In this document: piece by piece, positions 11,296-22,279 of the stretch
How positions within the stretch are numbered: the stretch's first letter is position 1
How the letters are laid out: each line of letters starts with the position of its first letter
Assembly: GCA_046294385.1 (NCBI GenBank)
Contig: JBKBJW010000001.1
Location: 131,588-195,587 of the forward strand
DNA: 64,000 nt
From: Brevundimonas sp.
Lineage (GTDB): Bacteria; Pseudomonadota; Alphaproteobacteria; Caulobacterales; Caulobacteraceae
Direction of reading: 5' to 3'
The notes under the pieces: generated by a model
What the model was told of the DNA's origin: nothing
The model's database searches: none
What the model saw: only the letters and a program-made list of their open reading frames with translations
Position numbers and translations under genes: made by a program

Positions 11296-12984
11296 TTGAC
11301 TTCATCGCCTTCCACCCCTGCGAAGCCGCAAGCCAGACCTCAGGCTCGCGACGTGCCGACGCTCACCGCGTGGCATGCCGGCTGCGCCATGGCCGCCGCC
11401 CTGCTGGCCCTGGGTGCCCGCTGGCTAGGGGATGTGGACGGCCCGGTCTTCTTCGCGGCCCTGGCCATGGCTGCGCCGGCGCTGGCGGGGCTGCTCCTGC
11501 TGTGGCGCGACGGTCCGGCCGTCCGGGGTCTGGTCGTGGCCGTCTGGGGCGTGGCGGCGCTGATCGCGGGTGCCCTGTCCGGCGGCGCGGCGGGTCCCCT
11601 GCCCGGCCTTGTGATCCTGCCCTTCGCGGCGGGCCTCGCCTTCGGTGCGCCGAGGCTGGCCATGGCCGGGGCCGTCGGTTCGACCCTGGCGGCTCTCGGC
11701 GGCATCGTTTCCGTCTGGCTGACCGAGGGGGTGGAGCCCCGCCCCCTGCTGGCAATCACCTCCATCCTTCTCGCCGCCACGGCCACGGCGCTGGCCCTTC
11801 GCGGCGCCTGGCGCGGAGCCGCCGCCCGGGTCGAGGCCGCCGAGGCCTCCGTCCGCCGCGTCGAGGGCATCCTGTCCGCCCAGCCCGGCCTGACCCTGAT
11901 GCTGGAACCCTCCGGCCGGGTGCTGGCCGCCTACGGCACCCCGCCGCCGTCCCTGCCCGTCGATCCCCTGTTCGAGTCCGGCCTGATCGCCGCCGTCCAT
12001 GCGCCCGACCGTCCCGCCGTCCTGTCAGCCATAGAGCGGGCGCTTGCGGGCGCCGATGCCCAGACGCGCTTCGCCCCGCGCACCGCGCTGGACCGCCGCG
12101 TCACCTTCGTCGTGCGCCGGCTCGACGATCCGCACGGCCCGCGCCTGATCGCCCAGGCCTTCGACGGCACCGCCCAGTACGCCCGCGAGGTCGGCATGGA
12201 GACCCAGCGCGCCGAGGCCGAGGCCCAGAGCATGGGCAAGACCCGCTTCCTGGCCAATATGAGCCATGAGCTGCGCACCCCGCTGAACGCCGTCATCGGC
12301 TTCGCCGACATCATGCGCCAGCGCCTGTTCGGCCCCCTGCCCGAGCGCTACGGCGAATACGCGGACTCCATCCACGAGGCCGGCGGCCATCTGCTGGAAC
12401 TGATCAACGACGTGCTCGACGTCTCAAAGATCGAGGCCGACCGTTACCAGCTCTCGATCGAGCGCTTCGACGCCCGCGACGTCGTCTCCGCCGCCATGGC
12501 TCTCGTGCGCGTGACGGCCGAGGACAAGGGCGTGGAGCTGCACGGCGTCCTGCCGCCCGACATGGTCGAGGTCGCCGCCGACCGCCGGGCGCTGAAGCAG
12601 ATCACGCTCAACCTCCTGTCCAACGCGGTGAAGTTCACCCCCGCCGGCGGGTCCGTCACCGTCACGGTCGAGGTCATCGGCCCGTATCTGGAGATCGTCG
12701 TCGCCGACACCGGCGTCGGCATTGCCCCGGAAGACCTGAAACGCCTCGGCCGTCCCTTCGAACAGGCGGGCGGCGTCGACCAGCGGGCCCAGGGCACCGG
12801 CCTCGGCCTGTCGCTGGTCCGTGCCCTGGCCGAACTGCACAACGGCCGCATGTCGATGGACTCGACCCTCGGTGAAGGCTCCGCCGTCACCGTGCGCCTG
12901 CCCGTCGTCACCATCACCCGCCCCGCCCCGCCCGAAGGCGGCGCCGAGATCATCCCCCTGCGGGTCGTCGGCACCGGAGACTAG
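11296..12984 (+). CDS. divJ: Membrane histidine kinase, DivJ-like
   Basis: N-terminal TM bundle; H-box 'FLANMSHELRTPLNAVIGFADIMRQRLFGPL'; HATPase domain; divergent from sufE. Confidence 0.75.
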   Translation: MTSSPSTPAKPQARPQARDVPTLTAWHAGCAMAAALLALGARWLGDVDGPVFFAALAMAAPALAGLLLLWRDGPAVRGLVVAVWGVAALIAGALSGGAAGPLPGLVILPFAAGLAFGAPRLAMAGAVGSTLAALGGIVSVWLTEGVEPRPLLAITSILLAATATALALRGAWRGAAARVEAAEASVRRVEGILSAQPGLTLMLEPSGRVLAAYGTPPPSLPVDPLFESGLIAAVHAPDRPAVLSAIERALAGADAQTRFAPRTALDRRVTFVVRRLDDPHGPRLIAQAFDGTAQYAREVGMETQRAEAEAQSMGKTRFLANMSHELRTPLNAVIGFADIMRQRLFGPLPERYGEYADSIHEAGGHLLELINDVLDVSKIEADRYQLSIERFDARDVVSAAMALVRVTAEDKGVELHGVLPPDMVEVAADRRALKQITLNLLSNAVKFTPAGGSVTVTVEVIGPYLEIVVADTGVGIAPEDLKRLGRPFEQAGGVDQRAQGTGLGLSLVRALAELHNGRMSMDSTLGEGSAVTVRLPVVTITRPAPPEGGAEIIPLRVVGTGD

Positions 12985-13021
12985 CCAGCCGCCGGCGCCG
13001 CTGCGGTGCTGCGGTTGTGGT

Positions 13022-14467
13022 TCAGTCCGCCAAACCATAGTGACTGAGCACAGCGCTCACCCAATCGGCCTGGCCGGTCAGGTCGACATCGACCGGCACG
13101 CCCGTTGCGTTGAAACCGCGCCCGGGAAGTTCGTCCGAGGCGGCGACCACGGGAAGCCCAAGCAGGTGGCGCATTTCACCCTCGCCGACACTGAACATGG
13201 TCACGTTCTGATAGTCGATGGAGCCGCCGGTGGGCTCGCCGAAGACGGTGACACGGGCACTGCGCCGGGCCTCGATCAGAACCGCCTCCGCGGCGCTGAC
13301 CGAGTGCCGATCGACCAGGATGGCGACGTGCTGGGGCGTCGGGTGGATGGTCTCCGGCGCCGGCGTCGCCAGCAGCATGGCGGCAAGCGCCTGATCCTCG
13401 AAATAGGGGACCAGCCGGCCAGGTCGAGCCTGCATCCGGGCGATGAAATCGTCATAGAATGCCCGTTCCTGTCCCTGGGGCAGGCTGTCGCGGATATTGC
13501 TGTAATAGCGGATAATCCGGGGCGAGGAGACAGCGTGGGGATGGACCCGCGGGCCGGTCGCCGGTGCCATGTTCGCGCTGGCGTAATATGGCGCGAGAGG
13601 GCGGGCCAGGGCGGTGCTGCCGCCATCGTTGCCGCGCAGGTCAATGATCAGCAGCGGGCGCGCCCGGATGTCGGCATCGTGGGCCGAAACGAGATCGACG
13701 ATGGCCTGCCGATGCTCAGGGGAAAAGGACGGCAGGGCGACGATCGCGGCCCGGTCGCCCAAGGGGGCGAAGGTCGGCGCGCGCGGCCGGGACGGGTCGA
13801 ACGGCGACGAGGCGTCGGCCGTATCCAGCCGGCGTCCCCAGCTCAGGGGCGGCATATGCAGGATCATGCCATCGCGCTGGAGCGCGGCCGCATAGCGGAT
13901 CGGGGCCCTGTCCTCGCTTCGATAGACGGTCGCCTGAATGGTCCCGTCCGTCTCCACGAAGCGGGCCGCCACGTCGCCGACATGCCAGGCGTCATCGCGC
14001 GCCGCAGCCACGATCGCGACATGGCGGCCGGTCCCTTCCGGCACCACATGGATGTCGAACTCCGGGGCGACCCAGACGCCCTGGAGGCCCTCGAGATCCG
14101 CCGCAGGCGCGGGCGGGACCGGGCGCGGCGCATGGGCGGTGCGGTAGGCCTCTGCCTGGGCTGCGGCCAGCTCCGGCCGCTCCAGGACGAACAGGTGTGG
14201 ATCGTCGAAATAGCCGACGAACCGGCGCAACGCGTGGGTGCAGTCGGTGGGAGCAACGGTTTGGGCGCGCCGTTCCGCCTCGACGGCGAAGGCCTGGTAC
14301 GCGGCCAGTCGGGCCGGCTCGGGCGCGATTGCCACGGCATAACCGACATAGTCGGTCTCCACCGCCTGACGGATCTTGCCCAGGACGGCGGCGCAGGCAG
14401 GGTCGGCGCGGACGGTGCCGGCAGGCAGGATCAGGCCGAGGAGGAGAAGGGGAAATACAGGACGCAT
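13022..14467 (-). CDS. Secreted S41 family peptidase
   Basis: 'LIIDLRGNDGG', 'SVSAAE' (catalytic Ser), 'FGEPTGG' and 'TGVPVDV'; signal peptide MRPVFPLLLLGLILPAGTVRA. Confidence 0.85.
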   Translation of the reverse strand: MRPVFPLLLLGLILPAGTVRADPACAAVLGKIRQAVETDYVGYAVAIAPEPARLAAYQAFAVEAERRAQTVAPTDCTHALRRFVGYFDDPHLFVLERPELAAAQAEAYRTAHAPRPVPPAPAADLEGLQGVWVAPEFDIHVVPEGTGRHVAIVAAARDDAWHVGDVAARFVETDGTIQATVYRSEDRAPIRYAAALQRDGMILHMPPLSWGRRLDTADASSPFDPSRPRAPTFAPLGDRAAIVALPSFSPEHRQAIVDLVSAHDADIRARPLLIIDLRGNDGGSTALARPLAPYYASANMAPATGPRVHPHAVSSPRIIRYYSNIRDSLPQGQERAFYDDFIARMQARPGRLVPYFEDQALAAMLLATPAPETIHPTPQHVAILVDRHSVSAAEAVLIEARRSARVTVFGEPTGGSIDYQNVTMFSVGEGEMRHLLGLPVVAASDELPGRGFNATGVPVDVDLTGQADWVSAVLSHYGLAD

Positions 14468-15225
14468 CGCAGGGATCCTTTGTTGGGGTGGGGTGCAGGT
14501 CCGGACGCGCGCGGTCGGCCATTGGCGCTTGGCCAAAGGGGTCAACGTCCGGGAATTGTCGTGGGTGTGGGGCCGGGCGATCAGCCCGGTATGTCGCGGA
14601 CCGGGACCGGCCGGTCGGTAACGCCGATGCAGGTCAGAGCGGCCAGACGGGCCTCGGCCGCCCCCGGCCCGAAATAGGGACCGCGCCGCAAGGATCGCTC
14701 GCAGCGCGCCCGCGCCGCATGACCCGGCCGCTCGGAAACGCCGACGCAGGTCAGGGCGGCCAGACGGGCCTCGGCGGCCCCCGGCCCGAAATGGGGACCG
14801 CGCCGCAACGACCTTTCGCAGCGCGCCTGCGCCGCATCATCGGCGCGCAGGGCCGCCTCTTGCTGCGCGGGGCGTTCCACCGCCGCGCTGACGGCGACAG
14901 CCTGGTACGCGTGGACGGTTCCGGCCGGGAAGGTCAGGCCAAGGAGGAGAAGGGGGAACATCAGACGCATTGGAGATATCCTTTGTTGAAGTCGGGTGGA
15001 GGTGCGGACGCGCGCGGTCGGCCGTCGGCGCTGGACCGAAGGGAACGATGTCCGGGACTTGTGGTAGGCGTCGGCCGGGCGGTCAGCCCGGTGCGGCGGG
15101 GGTCCGGGCCGGCGGTTCGGGAACGCCGATGCAGGTCAGGGCGCCCAGACGGGCCTCCGCGGCTCCTGGCCCGAAGAGGGGGCCTCGCCGCAAAGCTCTC
15201 TCGCAGCGTGCCCGCGCCGCATCAT
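14410..15225. repeat. Imperfect tandem duplication (about 310-bp homologous blocks offset by about 503 bp) with a nested 117-bp repeat
   Basis: 14410-14720 aligns by eye with 14913-15223; the 14621 block repeats at 14738 and 15123. Confidence 0.85.
14581..14970 (-). CDS. Small secreted protein with two copies of a 39-aa C-x23-C repeat
   Basis: Signal peptide MRLMFPLLLLGLTFPAGTVHA; two 'ARCERSLRRGPxFGPGAAEARLAALTC' copies. Confidence 0.7.
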   Translation of the reverse strand: MRLMFPLLLLGLTFPAGTVHAYQAVAVSAAVERPAQQEAALRADDAAQARCERSLRRGPHFGPGAAEARLAALTCVGVSERPGHAARARCERSLRRGPYFGPGAAEARLAALTCIGVTDRPVPVRDIPG

Positions 15226-16447
15226 TGGCGCGCAGAGCGGCCTCATGTTGCGTGGGGCGTCCAACCGCCGCCCGGGTTGCGATGGCCTCCTGCGGCACCA
15301 CGGCGGCGATGTCGGCCGCCGCTTCAGTCGAAACCGGGATGGGCGTGGATTCAGGTGAGGCAGCGGCTGGTGCCGGGGCTGGCGAAGGATGAGTCTGGAT
15401 TGCGGAAGGCACCGTATCGGCACGGGCCGGGGTGGATGCCCGCTGGACTGCGACAGTGGTCGGGACGCGAGCGGGCGCCGTTTCGGGCCGGGCAATGGAT
15501 GCGAGGGGCATGTCGGCCGGCTGTTGGACGGTCGAGACAGCCGTCGCAGCGACCACGTCTACCGGACGGAGCCCCCAGACCAGTGTCGCGGCGCTGAGCG
15601 TGGTCAGAGCGACCGCCGCGAGCCCGGCCGCACGGCGCGGGGCTGACGGTGCCCGCCGCTTCAGCATGGCGAGCCGGATCTTCAGCGGGTGGAACCCTTG
15701 ATCGGGCCAGGCGCAGCCGAGCGGGGACTCCAGCTGGACGCCGTGGGATTTGAGCATGGCACCCGCGTAGCAGCGGCTCGCGCGCGTCTCCGCCAGCACG
15801 CGAGCGTCGCATGCCAGTTCCTGATCGATGCGCAGGGCAGCGGCAGCGATGTGCACAAAGGGATTGAACCAGCCCAGGCTGCGGACCACCACGGCGATGG
15901 CATTGACCATCGGATCGCGCCGCGCCAGATGGCCCTGCTCATGCGCCAGCACCAGCGCCCGTTCCTCGGGGGTAAACCGCCGCGCAAAATCCGCGGGCAG
16001 GACGATACGCGGTCGCAGCATGCCGACCACGACCGGCCCGGCGCGAGACTCCGTTGCGAAGACGGCTTCGCCCATCGTCGTCAGCGGGCACAGTGGCCCG
16101 AGTGCCTTCAGGAAGCGGCGCTGGCGCAGGGTGAAGATCGTCAGGGTCAGCGCCACGCCGATCAACCAGACCAGCAGGGCGACAGCACCGAGCGAGGGAC
16201 CCGACGCAAGGGCACCGGCGGTGATGGGCGTCTTGGCTGTGACCGTGGCGACGGCCCATTCGACCTCGACCTGCCTGCCCGGCACCAGCCACGCCAGAAC
16301 GGCCATCGGCGGCGCGAGCCAGAGCCCGTAGGCGATGCGGGCCCCAAACGCGCGGCGGACCGGGATCCGCACGGCCAGAACCACCACAATGGCCACCGCA
16401 AGGGTCAGATTGCCCCAGATCAACATCGAAAGCGCTTCAGCGACCAT
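15083..16447 (-). CDS. BlaR1/MecR1-type M56 metallopeptidase (anti-repressor)
   Basis: 'GARIAYGLW', 'PRIVLP', HExxH 'LAHEQGH', 'WFNPFVH' and 'DQELACD'; overlaps the blaI-family gene. Confidence 0.9.
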   Translation of the reverse strand: MVAEALSMLIWGNLTLAVAIVVVLAVRIPVRRAFGARIAYGLWLAPPMAVLAWLVPGRQVEVEWAVATVTAKTPITAGALASGPSLGAVALLVWLIGVALTLTIFTLRQRRFLKALGPLCPLTTMGEAVFATESRAGPVVVGMLRPRIVLPADFARRFTPEERALVLAHEQGHLARRDPMVNAIAVVVRSLGWFNPFVHIAAAALRIDQELACDARVLAETRASRCYAGAMLKSHGVQLESPLGCAWPDQGFHPLKIRLAMLKRRAPSAPRRAAGLAAVALTTLSAATLVWGLRPVDVVAATAVSTVQQPADMPLASIARPETAPARVPTTVAVQRASTPARADTVPSAIQTHPSPAPAPAAASPESTPIPVSTEAAADIAAVVPQEAIATRAAVGRPTQHEAALRANDAARARCERALRRGPLFGPGAAEARLGALTCIGVPEPPARTPAAPG

Positions 16448-16805
16448 CGTCGAGCTCCGCGACCAGCCGCTTCAGATCGGCGACATCCTCGGCAGTCAGC
16501 TGGTTGGTTTCGGCGAAATGGGACACCATCGGCGCCAGCCGCCCGTCGAACAGGCGGTCCAGCAGGCCCCGGCTTTCGACCTGGACGTAGTCCGCCCGGG
16601 GCGTCACCGGTGAATAGAGATAGCGACGGCCCTGCGGCTCGGCGGAGATGGCTTGCTTCGACAGCAACCGGCTGAGCAACGTCTTGACTGTCCCTTCTGA
16701 CCAGTCCCGCTCGGGGCCGACTTCGGCGACGATTTCCTCGGCGCTCAGCGGGTGCTTGCGCCACAGAGCCTCCATCACGAGGCTTTCTGCATGACTGATG
16801 CTCAT
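16437..16805 (-). CDS. BlaI/MecI/CopY family repressor
   Basis: 'ISHAESLVMEALW', 'WSEGTVKTLLSRLLSK' and 'LLDRLFDG'. Confidence 0.92.
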   Translation of the reverse strand: MSISHAESLVMEALWRKHPLSAEEIVAEVGPERDWSEGTVKTLLSRLLSKQAISAEPQGRRYLYSPVTPRADYVQVESRGLLDRLFDGRLAPMVSHFAETNQLTAEDVADLKRLVAELDDGR

Positions 16806-16806
16806 T

Positions 16807-16860
16807 CGTTTACACCTGTAATCTCCGGCCAACGAATACAGGCGTAAACGATGCTGTCAA
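16807..16860 (-). promoter_or_regulatory. Two BlaI-type operators overlapping the promoter
   Basis: TTACA-CC-TGTAA at 16810-16821 and TACA-GG-CGTA at 16837-16846 (family consensus TACA-NN-TGTA); TTGACA on the minus strand at 16855-16860. Confidence 0.8.
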
Positions 16861-17156
16861 GCCCAAAGGCGGCAGCTGTCAAAGGTGTAACGGCCGGTGC
16901 AACCGACGATCAACCGGACCGGCACCGGCTTATGGCGTGAGCGATCGCGCTGTCGTCCAGCCGGTCGTGATCGCCTCGAACCCAGGGTTCTCGGGCACAG
17001 GCTCTGAAGCACTCAGCGCTGTCGCAATGCCCGCTTTGGGTCGGTAGCTCCAGGCCGACACTCAGACGCGCTCGCAGCCACTACAGGCGGGAGCCGGCGT
17101 TGAGCGCAGTGCGGCTTGCTAGCCCTCCGGCGGCGGCCGAACGGACCTGAACGAGG

Positions 17157-18542
17157 CTACTCTTTGGGCTTTGCAGCGCCCTTTGTCGCCCGCTCCACCA
17201 CGGCCTTGCCTGTGTCGGTCTGGGCCAGCCCCTCCAGCATCGCCCCGAGGGCCTGGCCGCCCTTCGCGCTGAACACGTCGGTGATGCTGTTCATGCCCGC
17301 GGGCACGTCGCCGCCCGTCACGATCACCTTGATGTCGGCGGCCTTCAGGGCGTCGGCCTGGGCGATACCGACGGCCTGCCCGGCCTTGATCTGCTCCACG
17401 CGCACCAGATAGGTCTGGTAGCCGTCATTGCCGCCGATCTCCCTTGCGAGTTCGATCTGCGTCGAGACCGGCGCCAGAAGCAGCAGCCGCTCGGCTTCGG
17501 CCCGGCTCTGGCCCTGCGCCAGCAAGCCTTCGGCGTCGAGCTTCTGCTGTGCCAGCGTGCCTTGCGCGACCAGCTCCAGTCGTTGACGTTCGGCCTCTGC
17601 GGCGATGACCTGCTGTTGGCGCTGTCCCTCGGCCCGGATGATCGTGACCTCGCGCTCCTGCGCGGCCTGAACCTCCGCGACCCCCTTGGCGATGTCGGCG
17701 GCGCGCGTATCGGCGACCAGCTTCACATCCATTTCGCGTTCGGTGGTGTCCTTCTGGGCGACCAGGACCTGCTGCTCGGCGACCTGCTTGGCGATGCCGA
17801 CCTGCTTTTCCTGCTCGGCGGTCCGCATCCCGACCTGCTGCAGGGCGTCCTGCTGGTTCACCTCGACGATGCGCTGGGCCTCAATTTCCTTGGTCTGGGC
17901 CATCTGGCTGTTCATCGCCACGGCCTCGCGGCTCTCGCGGTCGATGCGGGATTTTTCCTTCGCCATGATGTTGGCGATGACCTGCGAGTTGGCGCTGTCG
18001 CGGATGTCCATGAACTCGATGTTCTTGACCGTCTCGACGCCCCACGCCTGAAGCTGATTGTCCACCTGGGCGGTAAAGGCCTCGGCCAGGGTCGATCGGG
18101 CTTCGAGGATTTCTTCCAGCTTGTGGGTGGCCAGCACGTTCCGGACGGCCCCCTGAAGGATGCCGGACAGCTGGTGTTGTAGCTCGTCGAAATTGGCGAC
18201 CTTTTCCGCCGCCGTGTCCGACTCTGCGATCCGCATGAAGGCCTGCACGTCGACGCGGAAAGGAAGACGCCCCGTGTCGTAGGCTTCGTAGTCTTTCAGG
18301 TTCACGTCAAAGATGGAGACCGGGAATTTGGTCACCAGGACGCCGATCCTGGGCAGGAAGGCCGGCCACTCGTAATAGACGTTTCCGGCCGACTGACTGG
18401 CGCCGTAGCTGACGCGCGACCGCCCGCGCTGGACGATGTGCACCTCGTTGGTCGGGACCACCCGGCGCAGAACAAGCGCGATCAGGAATCCAATGGCGAA
18501 GAGGCCGAGCGCTACGCCGCCGGCAACGAAATACAAGGTCAT
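17157..18542 (-). CDS. SPFH/band-7 flotillin-like protein
   Basis: N-terminal TM, 'RRVVPTNEVHIVQ', SPFH domain and a long Ala/Glu/Gln coiled coil. Confidence 0.85.
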   Translation of the reverse strand: MTLYFVAGGVALGLFAIGFLIALVLRRVVPTNEVHIVQRGRSRVSYGASQSAGNVYYEWPAFLPRIGVLVTKFPVSIFDVNLKDYEAYDTGRLPFRVDVQAFMRIAESDTAAEKVANFDELQHQLSGILQGAVRNVLATHKLEEILEARSTLAEAFTAQVDNQLQAWGVETVKNIEFMDIRDSANSQVIANIMAKEKSRIDRESREAVAMNSQMAQTKEIEAQRIVEVNQQDALQQVGMRTAEQEKQVGIAKQVAEQQVLVAQKDTTEREMDVKLVADTRAADIAKGVAEVQAAQEREVTIIRAEGQRQQQVIAAEAERQRLELVAQGTLAQQKLDAEGLLAQGQSRAEAERLLLLAPVSTQIELAREIGGNDGYQTYLVRVEQIKAGQAVGIAQADALKAADIKVIVTGGDVPAGMNSITDVFSAKGGQALGAMLEGLAQTDTGKAVVERATKGAAKPKE

Positions 18543-18707
18543 GTGAATCCCCGGAACCAGCCGGACTATGTCCATAAAGCCCGGACGGAGCAACTCTTGC
18601 GGGAGTCTGCGCGCCCGTCGGTTCGGCGGCCGGCGGTGCCGGCGGCAGGCCCCCTGAGCGGACATCGCGAAGGTCCGCTATGGGGGGTTAGCGGACTCAC
18701 ACGCAGG

Positions 18708-19187
18708 CTAGAACGCGGTCCAAACTTCTGTTCCATCGAACTCAAACCGGAGACCGGTTGAGGCCCTGACCCCGGTAAGTGTCGGCCAGTGGAACGCGAA
18801 ATCATGGATATAGACAGGTAATACGAAGTATCGCCGCCCTGTAACGTCGATGACGATTGTGCGTCTCTCAAAAAGCTTCGCCATCCAACTCGCTGCACAA
18901 AAGCGGGAGTCGGCAGAGAACGCGAAGATGCAGCCCCAAACATAACCAGGGAGCCTCGCCTCGCCCAAAGTCAACTCATGGAAGCTGTCGCCGTGAGGTG
19001 GCTCGCCGACATAACGGAGCGCAATCTCCTGCTGTTTGTCGGGGGAGACGAGCACGTAGTTGCCCATCCCGGCCCATCGGCCCTCACCATCCGCTGAGAA
19101 CTCGATCCGCTTGTCCAACGGGGCAGGATCATCGGCGACAAGTAGTCTTGGCACCGCCCTCCTCTTGGGCTTGAACCATCCGAACAT
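18708..19187 (-). CDS. Hypothetical protein (cassette gene)
   Basis: 159-aa ORF with lower GC, exactly fills the interval between repeats. Confidence 0.7.
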   Translation of the reverse strand: MFGWFKPKRRAVPRLLVADDPAPLDKRIEFSADGEGRWAGMGNYVLVSPDKQQEIALRYVGEPPHGDSFHELTLGEARLPGYVWGCIFAFSADSRFCAASWMAKLFERRTIVIDVTGRRYFVLPVYIHDFAFHWPTLTGVRASTGLRFEFDGTEVWTAF

Positions 19188-19283
19188 GAACTACCCCCAA
19201 AAAACCAAGCGGCACTGGAGCGAACTACCCGACGTCCGCTATGGGTCGATAGCGGACAGTCGGCTTTGGTGACAAAGCGGACC

Positions 19284-19778
19284 CTAGGCGACGGTCGACG
19301 TGGCTGGCTCTACGACCGGGTCCAAGGGGTCAGGTCCGAAGCGATTTGGACCTGCCGTGCCTCGCAGGAAGAACAACTCGATCATGCCCCATGCCATAAG
19401 CGGGGCGACTAAGAAGAGGCCCGTAATCAGAACGGGCAAAATGCGTTCATGGCTTGTGTCGACTAGGCGTGAGAGCACCGATACGAGGAGGGCGTGGGGG
19501 CCGAAGAAGGCGAGGAGCCACCAGCTCTCCCGGTTCCGATCGTGAAGGCGGCGCACAACACCGCCAAGCAGCAGCGTGAATGACAGAACGGCGAGCGGCA
19601 ACAAGACAGCTCCGGCAATCAGCCTGATGCCTCCTGTAGATGCGAACGCAACCGCTTGGAACGGCAGCCCTAAAATGCCGACGAGGTAAAACAGGCCAAT
19701 CGACCCATAGAGCGCCTTGCGCGACGCCCTGCCTCGCCAGCGAACCGTCGACCAAACAAACCGGATGAGCCGTTGCAT
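19284..19778 (-). CDS. DUF805 membrane protein (cassette gene)
   Basis: 'GRASRK', 'VRRLHDRNRESWW' and 'GTAGPNRFGPDP' motifs. Confidence 0.88.
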   Translation of the reverse strand: MQRLIRFVWSTVRWRGRASRKALYGSIGLFYLVGILGLPFQAVAFASTGGIRLIAGAVLLPLAVLSFTLLLGGVVRRLHDRNRESWWLLAFFGPHALLVSVLSRLVDTSHERILPVLITGLFLVAPLMAWGMIELFFLRGTAGPNRFGPDPLDPVVEPATSTVA

Positions 19779-19830
19779 CCTAAGATGAAATCACACCGGA
19801 GGGGCGTCCGCTATGGGTCGAAAGCGGACA

Positions 19831-20280
19831 TCAGCCGGGCAGTGCCGAAGCGGCCTTCACGATTTCATCGGGCGGTTCGAAAAGACGCTTTGCCAGCACT
19901 CGCACTGTCGTTCCGTCGCCAAACTCAAAGACGACGAACTGTTCTTCCCACAATCGGTAGCGAGGCCGATTACGCTCAGACCGCACGCTCACCAACTCTG
20001 ACCGTGGTCTGCGGAATCGATCAGAGACGATAACGTCTCCATCAACCCACACGGCACGGGCCCTGCCGCCGAAGGCTTTCCATAGCTCCTGGGCAGATAG
20101 AGCGAGTGCCAGCGGCGAAACCAGTGCAGTCCCTGCCCACCCGCGACCTAAGTCTGACACGTCGGGAAAGGCGGCGAGAATTACCCACGGCGCAGCCGCG
20201 ACCACGATGAAAATCGCAGCCCACTTTGCGTGATAGATCGGATTGCGGTGGGCAATGATCAAGCGAGTTTCCTTCAACAC
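19831..20280 (-). CDS. Hypothetical two-TM membrane protein (cassette gene)
   Basis: Two TM helices plus a soluble C-terminus; GTG start at 20280 chosen because the longer ORF crosses the repeat at 20306. Confidence 0.6.
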   Translation of the reverse strand: MLKETRLIIAHRNPIYHAKWAAIFIVVAAAPWVILAAFPDVSDLGRGWAGTALVSPLALALSAQELWKAFGGRARAVWVDGDVIVSDRFRRPRSELVSVRSERNRPRYRLWEEQFVVFEFGDGTTVRVLAKRLFEPPDEIVKAASALPG

Positions 20281-20390
20281 CGACCATCTTCGCAGGTGCT
20301 CAAGAGTCCGCAATGGGTCGATAGCGGGCGGTCGGGTCTGGGTGAAATGCAGACGTTGCCCACAACCTCTTGCAGTGCGACCGTCGCAGT

Positions 20391-21284
20391 ATGTTCGAGG
20401 CAAGTCCCAAAGCACGCGCCCACCGCCTCGTGAGGATTCTAGGCTGGCTGGCCCTTGCCGGGTTGCTGACGGGAGTCATCCTTGGCGCGGCGGGTTACCG
20501 GTCGGCGCGGTCCGAGCCGATCGTCCGGACGACAACGATTTCGGTTCCCGAGTGGCCCCACGGCGCTCCGCCGCTCCGCATCGCCCTGCTCAGCGACATT
20601 CACATGGGCGGGGCGGCGATGGACGTCCGACGACTAGACCGGATCGTTGATGCGGTGAACGCCCGGTCTCCCGACCTGGTGCTCATCGCCGGGGACTTCG
20701 TCTACGGGCACTCGCCAGAAGAGGGCCGTGCAGCAACGGCGCACCTGACGGCACCCCTATCGCGACTGAAGGCACCGTTGGGCGTCGTCGCGGTTCTGGG
20801 CAATCATGATCATTGGACTGACCCGGACGCGGTGCAGGAGGCGCTGGAGAGCGCCGGGGTCACCGTGCTGAAGAACACAGCGGCGGTGCGCGGACCTGCT
20901 GTGATTTTGGGCATCGATGACGCGTTCTCGGGTAACGATCAGATCGGCCTTACGATGAAGTCTGCCGAGATGCTGGCAGGTTTCCGGATCGCCCTGACGC
21001 ATGCGCCAGATCTGGCATTCAGCTTGCCCACCGACGTCACTCTGGTGCTGGGAGGGCATTCCCATTGCGGGCAGTTGGTGCTGCCGCTGATTGGACCGGT
21101 GATCGAGCGGTCGCCGCTATTGAACAAGCCGCTCTATGATCCGCGATACCGCTGTGGTGTCGTCGACGGTGACGGGCAAACAGTCATCGTAACCGGCGGC
21201 CTAGGGGCAAGTGGCCCGCCGATGCGTATCGGAGCGCCGCCCGACTGGTGGTTCATAACGCTCGTGCCCCGCAAGCCCGGGTAA
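20391..21284 (+). CDS. Metallophosphoesterase (YkuE/YaeI-like)
   Basis: 'SDIH', 'AGDF', 'LGNHD', 'THAPD' and 'GHSHCGQ' motifs; N-terminal TM. Confidence 0.9.
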   Translation: MFEASPKARAHRLVRILGWLALAGLLTGVILGAAGYRSARSEPIVRTTTISVPEWPHGAPPLRIALLSDIHMGGAAMDVRRLDRIVDAVNARSPDLVLIAGDFVYGHSPEEGRAATAHLTAPLSRLKAPLGVVAVLGNHDHWTDPDAVQEALESAGVTVLKNTAAVRGPAVILGIDDAFSGNDQIGLTMKSAEMLAGFRIALTHAPDLAFSLPTDVTLVLGGHSHCGQLVLPLIGPVIERSPLLNKPLYDPRYRCGVVDGDGQTVIVTGGLGASGPPMRIGAPPDWWFITLVPRKPG

Positions 21285-21389
21285 AGCAGTGGGGCACCAG
21301 TCATGAAGGGCGGTATTGTGTCCGCTAAGGGTCGACAGCGGACGCTTAAGCGTCCAGCCCGCACCCGCCGGGCCAGACGGTGAGCCTGG

Positions 21390-21415
21390 CCACCAGCCAC
21401 CAGTCACCAGCCACC
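21390..21415. repeat. Heptamer tandem repeat (YCACCAG)x3.7
   Basis: ccaccag ccaccag tcaccag ccacc at the right edge of the accessory block. Confidence 0.7.
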
Positions 21416-22279
21416 CTAGAGCGCGCCCAGTTCCAGGAACGCCTGCCCGGCGGCGAAGTCGCCGACCTCGAACACGGCGCGGGCCACGGTCTCGTCGCGG
21501 AACACGAACTCGATGGCGAAGGGTTCGCGCGGATCCAGCTGGTTGAGGGCCGCCGCTGCCGACGCCGGGAAGCGCCAGGCCTGGCCCTCGGTCTTGCCCG
21601 CGCTGAGCAGGCCCGGCTCGGCCTGGGCCATGCCCGACGACCAGATCACCCGTTGCAGTGCCGGGGGCGGCAGCTGACCGGCCCCGCCCAGCCATGCCCG
21701 TGGCGACTTGCCCGGATCGCGCATGACGACCCGCACCGCATAGGGGCGCGGGCGGCCGTAGAAGGACACCACCGCCGACAGGCTCTCGCCCTGCAGGCTG
21801 GTCGCATATCCGAAGGTCACGGGCGAGGCGCCGGTCATCGACGCCTGCATCAGCCGCCAGTTGGCGCTGCGATAGACGACCCGGTTGGCCTCCCAGCTCG
21901 CCCGCAGCCCGGGGAAGGTCATGCGCGGCATCCGCACCCAGCCGGCGAAGGCGTTCTCGACGCGGTTTTTCACCAGGCGCAGGTCGGCGTTGTCACAGGC
22001 CACCGTTCCGGCCCGCGCTCGCGCCCGCGCCTCGGCGTCATTCAGGGCCGTGGCCGCCACACCGCCGCGCAGGGCCGCGCCCCGCGCCTGTCGCTGGGCC
22101 GCCGTCAGGGCTGACCGCACCGGGGCCGTGAACAGGCCGCACTTCTGGTGCGCGGCCAGCACGAACGTCCGCTCGTAGAAGGTCTGGGACGCGTCAGCCC
22201 ACGCCTGCATCGGCACAGCCGCCAGCATCAGGGCGGCGATTGCAGCTTTGGCGGTTCGCGTGTTCAGGCCTATCGTCAT
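21416..22279 (-). CDS. Hypothetical exported protein
   Basis: Signal peptide ending 'QAWA'; host-like codon usage. Confidence 0.75.
   Translation of the reverse strand: MTIGLNTRTAKAAIAALMLAAVPMQAWADASQTFYERTFVLAAHQKCGLFTAPVRSALTAAQRQARGAALRGGVAATALNDAEARARARAGTVACDNADLRLVKNRVENAFAGWVRMPRMTFPGLRASWEANRVVYRSANWRLMQASMTGASPVTFGYATSLQGESLSAVVSFYGRPRPYAVRVVMRDPGKSPRAWLGGAGQLPPPALQRVIWSSGMAQAEPGLLSAGKTEGQAWRFPASAAAALNQLDPREPFAIEFVFRDETVARAVFEVGDFAAGQAFLELGAL

Follow-up and report, generated by a model that had tools for sequence, protein, structure and literature searches.

A recombinase-free array of single-gene cassettes bounded by composite repeats in Brevundimonas, and a candidate enzyme for its sites

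A stretch of 64,000 nucleotides from Brevundimonas sp. (contig JBKBJW010000001.1, positions 131,588 to 195,587; hereafter the window) contains, at 17029 to 21343, a series of unrelated genes separated by copies of a 24-bp repeat with inverted arms. An earlier note, made from the letters of this stretch, had read it as an integron-like gene-cassette array with neither attC sites nor an integrase, and possibly as an undescribed system for capturing or shuffling genes, with an enzyme that would act in trans. The question is whether these repeats delimit genes that move and, if so, which enzyme moves them. Judged by comparison of genomes, the window repeat is a real gene-cassette boundary, and the repeats are very probably cassette recombination sites; the clustering of copies in arrays, the variation of gene content and the breakpoints in the repeat core support the proposed capture or shuffling system. 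The fuller reading, that the repeats bound single-gene cassettes exchanged in the core GGGTCG and are likely the double-stranded sites of a recombinase of 208 amino acids (aa), appears probable.

All six intact copies reported previously (18673, 19234, 19259, 19806, 20306 and 21320) were found at these coordinates with 0 to 2 arm mismatches. Both degenerate copies were recovered as well, that at 17029 by repeat finding and a position weight matrix (PWM) and that at 20331 within a 49-nt doublet, of which it is the second half; no further copy of at least 13 bits occurs in the window. Most of the copies are separate boundaries, as had been assumed, but 19259 and 20331 are the second halves of composite sites. 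Each long interval indeed holds one gene, encoding an SPFH protein (PF01145), a protein without a known family, a DUF805 protein, another protein without a known family and a metallophosphoesterase (cassettes 1 to 5). The GC content of these genes (0.575-0.65) is lower than that of three flanking genes (0.67-0.73). No RYYYAAC/GTTRRRY pair of the attC type was found at the six junctions of the window, and no recombinase gene lies beside the array. A scan of the window against Rfam gave no match, and in a check for a Pc-type promoter the array showed a single sigma-70-like match, which is at chance level, and genes facing both ways.

The PWM, built from 16 repeat copies, was applied to the assembly to which the window belongs (G000, 1.61 Mb, 52% complete). 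It found 19 strong copies (≥20 bits) as compared to none in each of three control sequences, a contrast that is partly circular since the matrix was trained on the genome's own copies. When only the arms were used, the assembly gave 17 matches at a spacer of 10 and 0 to 2 at each other spacer from 6 to 15. According to the PWM, the copies form three co-oriented arrays, i.e. the window array and those at C20:82389-85472 and C25:75524-78858, besides two single copies on the same contigs C20 (C20:45958) and C25 (C25:1025). Clustering in co-oriented arrays instead of single scattering was seen both in this genome and in loci of the genus. The C20 array (L001, 6390-9496; G000:C20:82389-85495) carries seven short genes on both strands, its head lies directly behind a lipB-like gene (named by inspection), and homologs (68-72%) of two of its cassettes are present in other genomes' arrays. 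The C25 array (L003, 5525-8882; G000:C25:75524-78881) has longer cassettes, with an SBP56-like gene and a PF00144 beta-lactamase-fold hydrolase gene. It is part of an island that also has a resolvase-like gene (by inspection) and, 4 kb from the array, a PF00589 gene.

The repeat had been described as two 7-bp arms around a 10-bp spacer. The inverted arms and the spacer were confirmed, and the unit is better read as 9-6-9, with a 6-bp core. This core is nearly fixed: among 208 arms-only matches in loci of the genus, which were chosen because they held sites, 173 have the cores GGGTCG (124), GGGTGG (36) or GGGGGG (13). Internal sites are mostly composite: an A unit with the core GGGTCG is separated by one base from a B unit, which starts 25 bp after the A unit does and has a weak left arm, a core near GGGTGG and a strong right arm; a B unit follows the first A unit in 94 of 129 cases. 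The sites at array heads are single units; their core is of the B type in 46 of 52, and an extra right arm precedes them by 9 bp. At L015, two head sites (5133 and 5227) stand back to back with no gene between them, resembling the recombinase element described below minus its gene. Across 150 inter-site intervals, the median length was 492 bp, the longest open reading frame covered a median of 0.81, GC was 0.60, the genes were on the minus strand in 88 and on the plus strand in 62, and stop codons piled up at the outer edges of the sites. From these comparisons, a cassette extends from the core to the next A left arm and takes in, in this order, A right arm, B unit and gene.

The earlier note had offered two leads for the palindromic layout. 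That inverted arms around an asymmetric spacer mark a site-specific recombination site is supported by the link with a recombinase and by the breakpoints in the core (both below), and by comparison the 9-6-9 layout, the asymmetric core and these breakpoints fit the definition of a tyrosine recombinase target site. The lead that short hairpins serve HUH-type enzymes was not borne out. If the repeats were single-stranded hairpin substrates, attC-like or REP/HUH-like (REP, repetitive extragenic palindrome), of a hairpin-specific enzyme, the fact that the 19234 doublet folds, on either strand, as two hairpins (z about -5.5) would be explained, and doubled units do look like REP dimers. However, in 154 sites the arms are paired no more and no less than independent positions would be, at each of 11 position pairs, with no covariation, and the structure is therefore not under selection as a hairpin. 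Besides, the 20306 site folds weakly (z -1.3), and the loop is the most conserved part of the site. CGTC-tagged REPs, for their part, have 8-9-bp stems and 4-5-nt loops and rarely cluster, according to the accessible part of their description (PMC3733652). Judged from the repeat sites, with no genome-wide search for HUH/RAYT genes, the hairpin explanation is considered highly improbable.

As to movement, gene content was found to vary among relatives and strains, and exchange breakpoints map to the repeat core, in line with the earlier note, which had named invariant content and breakpoints away from the repeat as arguments against its idea. An 8.4-kb stretch (12960-21390) including the array is missing in seven of nine relatives fetched, in which both flanks are adjacent, and the other two showed the right flank only. 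The array interior was matched, in part, by four of 275 other genomes of the genus, where two candidates were scored per genome and weak matches may have escaped. In arrays of G276 and G090, homologs of cassette 4 (81-82%) stand among different neighbours, and similarity stops at the sites. Copies of the SPFH cassette that are 89-93% identical occur at other loci in 18 listed genomes of the 275, in head form (L148, L175 and L176) and in doublet form (L178 and L184); by inspection, eight of the 18 have a site at one or both ends. Near-identical cassettes (98-99.7%) stand in different arrays, and, among 23 homologous interval pairs compared, the breaks fall in the core in those of this identity whose sites were called cleanly. 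In L015/L016 (99.7%), L185/L186 (99.4%) and L186/L187 (98.3%), identity begins and ends at the core and the neighbours differ; the upstream left arm differs and the sequence is shared after the core, while the reverse holds downstream. L016/L017 (98.5%) behaves as the other near-identical pairs except that it is 25 bp shorter upstream, as is cassette 4 as compared to its G276 homolog. L019 and L021 represent the same locus with different cassette content.

Strain-level exchange was seen in X2, a metagenome run from another study, whose contigs can be misjoined at repeats. This conspecific strain is about 98-99% alike to the window across the island, and its cassette 2 occupies the same place. 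A 4,220-nt contig agrees with the window as far as 19257; there, another B unit opens a stretch of 2,525 other letters, after which the match resumes at 20306. Cassettes 3 and 4 have thus been replaced in X2 between two repeats, the left breakpoint being in the composite site at 19234-19282 and the right one in that at 20306-20354. Cassette 3 is not on this contig, which spans its place, and a second X2 contig has 19806-20334 (cassette 4) directly behind a head site. X1 was left out of the strain evidence as possibly the source sample, and X3 to X7 yielded only short pieces of low depth. Short side joints in metagenome runs (22-49 nt, including joints that go back) were considered as signs of circles and rejected as cross-matches between repeats. 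The array DNA had no match among plasmids, and the doublet gave only weak partial matches there. Taken together, the genome comparisons indicate that the cassettes are single-gene modules with site-precise ends, which vary between strains and recur in other arrays.

The same observations bear on another explanation, in which the repeats are inert REP-like elements or terminators gathering in islands and the genes are swapped by homologous recombination between them. It would accommodate the single copies at C20:45958 and C25:1025, the stops abutting the repeats as with terminators, and the 10 of 18 SPFH homologs that have no clear site. Against this, no terminator-type match was found at the repeats, co-orientation as judged by the core is strict, the breakpoints fall within one 6-bp window, and the site has a fixed position behind the recombinase gene. 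A repeat of 24 bp is also short for RecA-type exchange. We therefore regard inert repeats as a very improbable account.

The candidate enzyme is P0001, a 208-aa protein of G023; 37 bp separate its stop from the head of an array of 13 units. P0001 matches PF00589 (E 2.5e-16), and R59, K87, H156, R159, H182 and Y191 are invariant in 53 homologs. The predicted structure (pLDDT, i.e. predicted local distance difference test score, 85) comprises the catalytic domain only and matches the catalytic domains of XerA, XerH and Cre. A profile search returned five Xer structures and phmmer none in the PDB, and NCBIfam gave weak Xer matches and no integron-integrase model. The family occurs in 47 of 151 genomes of the genus, fragments included, and comprises at least 7,949 proteins from alpha-, beta- and gammaproteobacteria; homologs were also found in 347 plasmid records, including those of Escherichia and Klebsiella. 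On conjugative E. coli plasmids, a 58% homolog (L271, 5001-5603) lies between two hypothetical genes near IS1 and IS26.

The recombinase genes are linked to the sites in several ways. A head unit stands 34-62 nt behind the recombinase stop in 29 of 35 loci of the genus, related ones among them not being independent, as compared to 5 of 136 control windows, and between close pairs of recombinase loci identity drops to background right after this unit. Unaided motif discovery on homologs mostly from outside the genus gave the right arm of the site. The first 200 nt upstream of the recombinase start contained 66 outward half-sites (106 loci), any other bin having at most five, and the recombinase elements of G056 and G276 have head sites at both ends, with diverging arrays in G056. 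Over 42-46 nt, the array heads on C20 and C25 of our genome agree with the ends of the G056 element at 91-95% identity. Arrays begin at the recombinase stop in L017, L187, L194 and L202, and four of the six genomes with at least seven sites carry the recombinase, the unpublished G138 being included in this tally. A strict-arm scan around 79 distant homologs gave a weak signal (19 downstream and 10 upstream matches). On the basis of this linkage, the P0001 family is probably the enzyme of the sites. A second type of end, which has GCGCCA as its core and a 25-bp doublet directed away from the gene, was observed upstream of recombinase genes (L038, L044, L050 and L085-L088). It possibly represents a separate cassette channel; no convincing outward GCGCCA-type site was found in our genome.

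Based on these results, the following mechanism is proposed. The recombinase would bind the arms and exchange strands across the 6-bp core, and if the A units of neighbouring sites recombined, a circle with one composite site would be released. More speculatively, the second core of the circle (GGGTGG) might serve for its integration at the head site that follows the recombinase gene and carries the same core. Integration via the B core would account for several features: the B cores of head units and their lack of the middle 25 bp, the existence of the SPFH cassette in a head and a doublet form, and the short form of cassette 4 in the window together with its place at a head in X2. It is a tentative suggestion, to which we give somewhat less than even weight, that excision and integration are kept apart by two overlapping cores, with integration using the B core at the head.

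Several observations weigh against this picture. The A right arm goes with the downstream gene in three near-identical pairs, while strict B-core integration predicts the upstream gene; A-by-A integration must therefore also occur. On the rejoining side, the X2 contig matches over 63 nt with six differences, and the contigs could be misjoined. No excision circle was observed. The start of the window array lacks a recombinase-type head, its head-like site being the end of the SPFH cassette. The recombinase has no core-binding domain, which leaves unexplained how DNA is held. Outside the genus, half-sites were not enriched downstream of the recombinase apart from those at its own ends (23 in 348 kb, and 28 in 393 kb upstream), and many homologs therefore head no detectable array. 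Recombinase and sites did not co-occur at the genome level: a strict A site was present in 21 of 47 genomes with the recombinase and in 46 of 103 without it (Fisher p=1; fragments scored as positive). The site-rich genomes G159 (complete, nine sites), G005, G306, G333, G370 and G453 had no match to the recombinase profile. It follows from the last two points that half or more of the arrays are orphans or that another enzyme serves them. The P0001 family was not found in our 52%-complete assembly, in which none of four PF00589 matches belongs to it; the window array is an orphan, recombinase-free array, comparable to attC clusters that have no integron integrase (CALINs).

The second of these possibilities was weighed as an explanation in its own right, namely that the repeats are cassette recombination sites run by host XerC/D or another tyrosine recombinase, the 208-aa enzyme being a passenger element that uses the same sites. 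The missing co-occurrence and the six site-rich genomes just named favour it, XerC/D-like genes were present in all genomes tested, and core plus arms extends towards 11-6-11, the layout of dif and pdif sites. In G370, moreover, a genome without the P0001 family, a short recombinase of another family (193 aa; L268, 7475-8053) lies 800 bp from a variant site (6675). However, among 31 recombinase loci whose flanks reach up to 1.5 kb or more, sites lie upstream in three and all of them point away; this and the diverging arrays of G056 are not what would result if an element had inserted into a co-oriented array. In the four loci given above, the recombinase stop marks the start of arrays, and the sites are patchy (68 of 151 genomes of the genus) although Xer is universal. 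CALINs, too, are common in genomes without the integron integrase IntI, as the accessible part of PMC4889954 reports. A passenger role for the 208-aa enzyme is thus judged unlikely, and the sites are preferably assigned to the P0001 family.

The window array can be read from left to right as follows, with all its sites on the plus strand. The first site is a degenerate A-type unit (17029-17052; core GGGTCG) with a decayed right arm. A second degenerate unit starts 46 bp later (17075-17098); its right arm forms the left end of the SPFH cassette, and it aligns with the B-unit right arm preceding SPFH homologs in other genomes. Cassette 1 encodes the 461-aa SPFH/Band 7 protein on the minus strand (17157-18542; PF01145, E 1.6e-15), and its right end includes an extra right arm (18657-18663, from the sequence), 9 bp ahead of a head-like single unit with the core GGGGGG (18673-18696). 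The same arrangement recurs after SPFH genes in L146-L149 and L151 and behind the recombinase. A 20-bp inverted repeat (85%) at 17127-17146 and 18617-18636 brackets the SPFH gene inside its cassette. Cassette 2 encodes a 159-aa protein of no known family (18708-19187, minus), whose stop is 11 bp from the site. It is followed by a composite site (19234-19282), made up of an A unit at 19234-19257, with the core GGGTCG at 19243-19248, and a B unit at 19259-19282. Cassette 3, on the minus strand with its stop 1 bp from the B unit, encodes the DUF805 membrane protein (19284-19778; PF05656, E 3.1e-14). The next site (19806-19829) is short, with an A left arm and core fused to a B right arm, as seen in the pair WIN:19806 and L167:566 (500 vs 525 bp); it is 25 bp shorter than the site of the homolog in G276. 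Cassette 4 encodes a protein of about 150 aa with no known family and an uncertain start codon (19831-20280, minus; stop 1 bp from the site), and a composite site of an A unit (20306-20329) and a degenerate B unit (20331-20354) follows. The gene of cassette 5, on the plus strand (20370-21284), encodes a calcineurin-like metallophosphoesterase (PF00149, E 2.6e-13) with a YaeI-like match below the cut-off and a true start that may be later; two 64-68% homologs have no sites beside them. A terminal A unit without a B unit (21320-21343) is the last site, ahead of a conserved gene at 21416-22279. The left part of the insert (12985-16830) carries genes for an S41 peptidase, a BlaR1-like M56 peptidase and a BlaI-like repressor, with several 80-90% direct repeats within and after the M56 gene (14400-15270). 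This part was not counted as cassettes because no repeat sites were found there.

The sites are not confined to the genus. Five genomes from four further families of alphaproteobacteria have 10-43 copies of the same arms, and variant composite sites (L224-L235; G370, G306, G333, G453 and G480) combine the cores GGGTCA and TAGCCA 45-46 bp apart, with intervals of 1-3.7 kb. In the stretches read, the two-core design therefore recurs in other families; the window units at 17029 and 17075 are likewise 46 bp apart. An exact A site was also observed in 13 viral contigs (L210-L222), one of which has two sites 584 bp apart. According to the accessible part of Cury et al. (PMC4889954), no integron, In0 or CALIN was found in 243 alphaproteobacterial genomes, an absence called extremely puzzling. 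A separate cassette system, if real, would offer an answer and represent an unrecognised class of mobile genes that is invisible to attC-based tools; a recombinase acting on short sites without a core-binding domain would in turn be a candidate for a compact genome-engineering tool. We tentatively propose, at nearly even weight, a second, convergently evolved cassette platform, with a minimal tyrosine recombinase, double-stranded composite sites and two overlapping cores, that takes the place of integrons in alphaproteobacteria and extends to beta- and gammaproteobacteria, plasmids and viral contigs.

No description of such a system was found in a literature search whose coverage left out most subscription papers and supplements, and the window array is a real orphan array of an integron-like system that was not found described. 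The accessible part of PMC8138268 lists subgroups of simple recombinases with core-binding and catalytic domains, none of those found there matching P0001. Among known systems, the pdif modules of Acinetobacter are similar in that gene modules are bounded by short double-stranded sites with a 6-bp centre. They depend on host XerC/D, and their sites have AT-rich arms and alternate in orientation. The sites described here differ in having GC-rich arms, in being co-oriented and doubled, and in their link to a dedicated recombinase. FimB and FimE are similarly small (about 200 aa) and consist of the catalytic domain only; they are set apart by their description, inverting one promoter switch and not being known to form cassette arrays. 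CGTC-tagged REPs of alphaproteobacteria are likewise short GC-rich palindromes that are often paired, but, as far as the accessible description goes, have no enzyme (PMC3733652); together with the stem, loop and clustering given above, this contrasts with the conserved 6-bp core, co-oriented arrays and cassette exchange seen here. In our sites, the base preceding the arm varies (C in 54 of 154), GTC is paired and the loop has 6-10 nt, which departs from the definition of CGTC/GTAG REPs.

Integrons and CALINs share more with the present arrays. According to the accessible part of PMC4889954, the likeness extends to arrays of compact, mobile single-gene cassettes with site-precise ends, a special site by a tyrosine recombinase gene, excision between neighbouring sites (which we infer here), orphan arrays free of the enzyme, and stops on the site edge. 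Unlike integrons, the sites have neither an attC consensus nor the covariation expected where a folded single strand is recognised, and are 24 or 49 bp long with a fixed 6-bp core; the enzyme differs from IntI in its 208 aa, in the missing core-binding domain and in matching no IntI family; and the head site follows the recombinase stop, the genes face either way, and arrays could grow from both ends of the element. The rAID-1 clusters of Bacteroidales are also defined around a non-IntI tyrosine recombinase, followed by low-GC genes that are split by repeated intergenic motifs, one of them right after the recombinase stop. In the accessible part of their description (10.1101/471110), the enzyme is XerD-like, by definition >44% identical to BF9343_RS08045, with close homologs said to be confined to Bacteroidales, and the immunity genes are co-directional. 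By this description, the rAID-1 clusters differ in gene direction, the genes in our arrays not being co-directional (88 minus and 62 plus). Even so, rAID-1 is the nearest precedent for a cassette platform that is not run by IntI.

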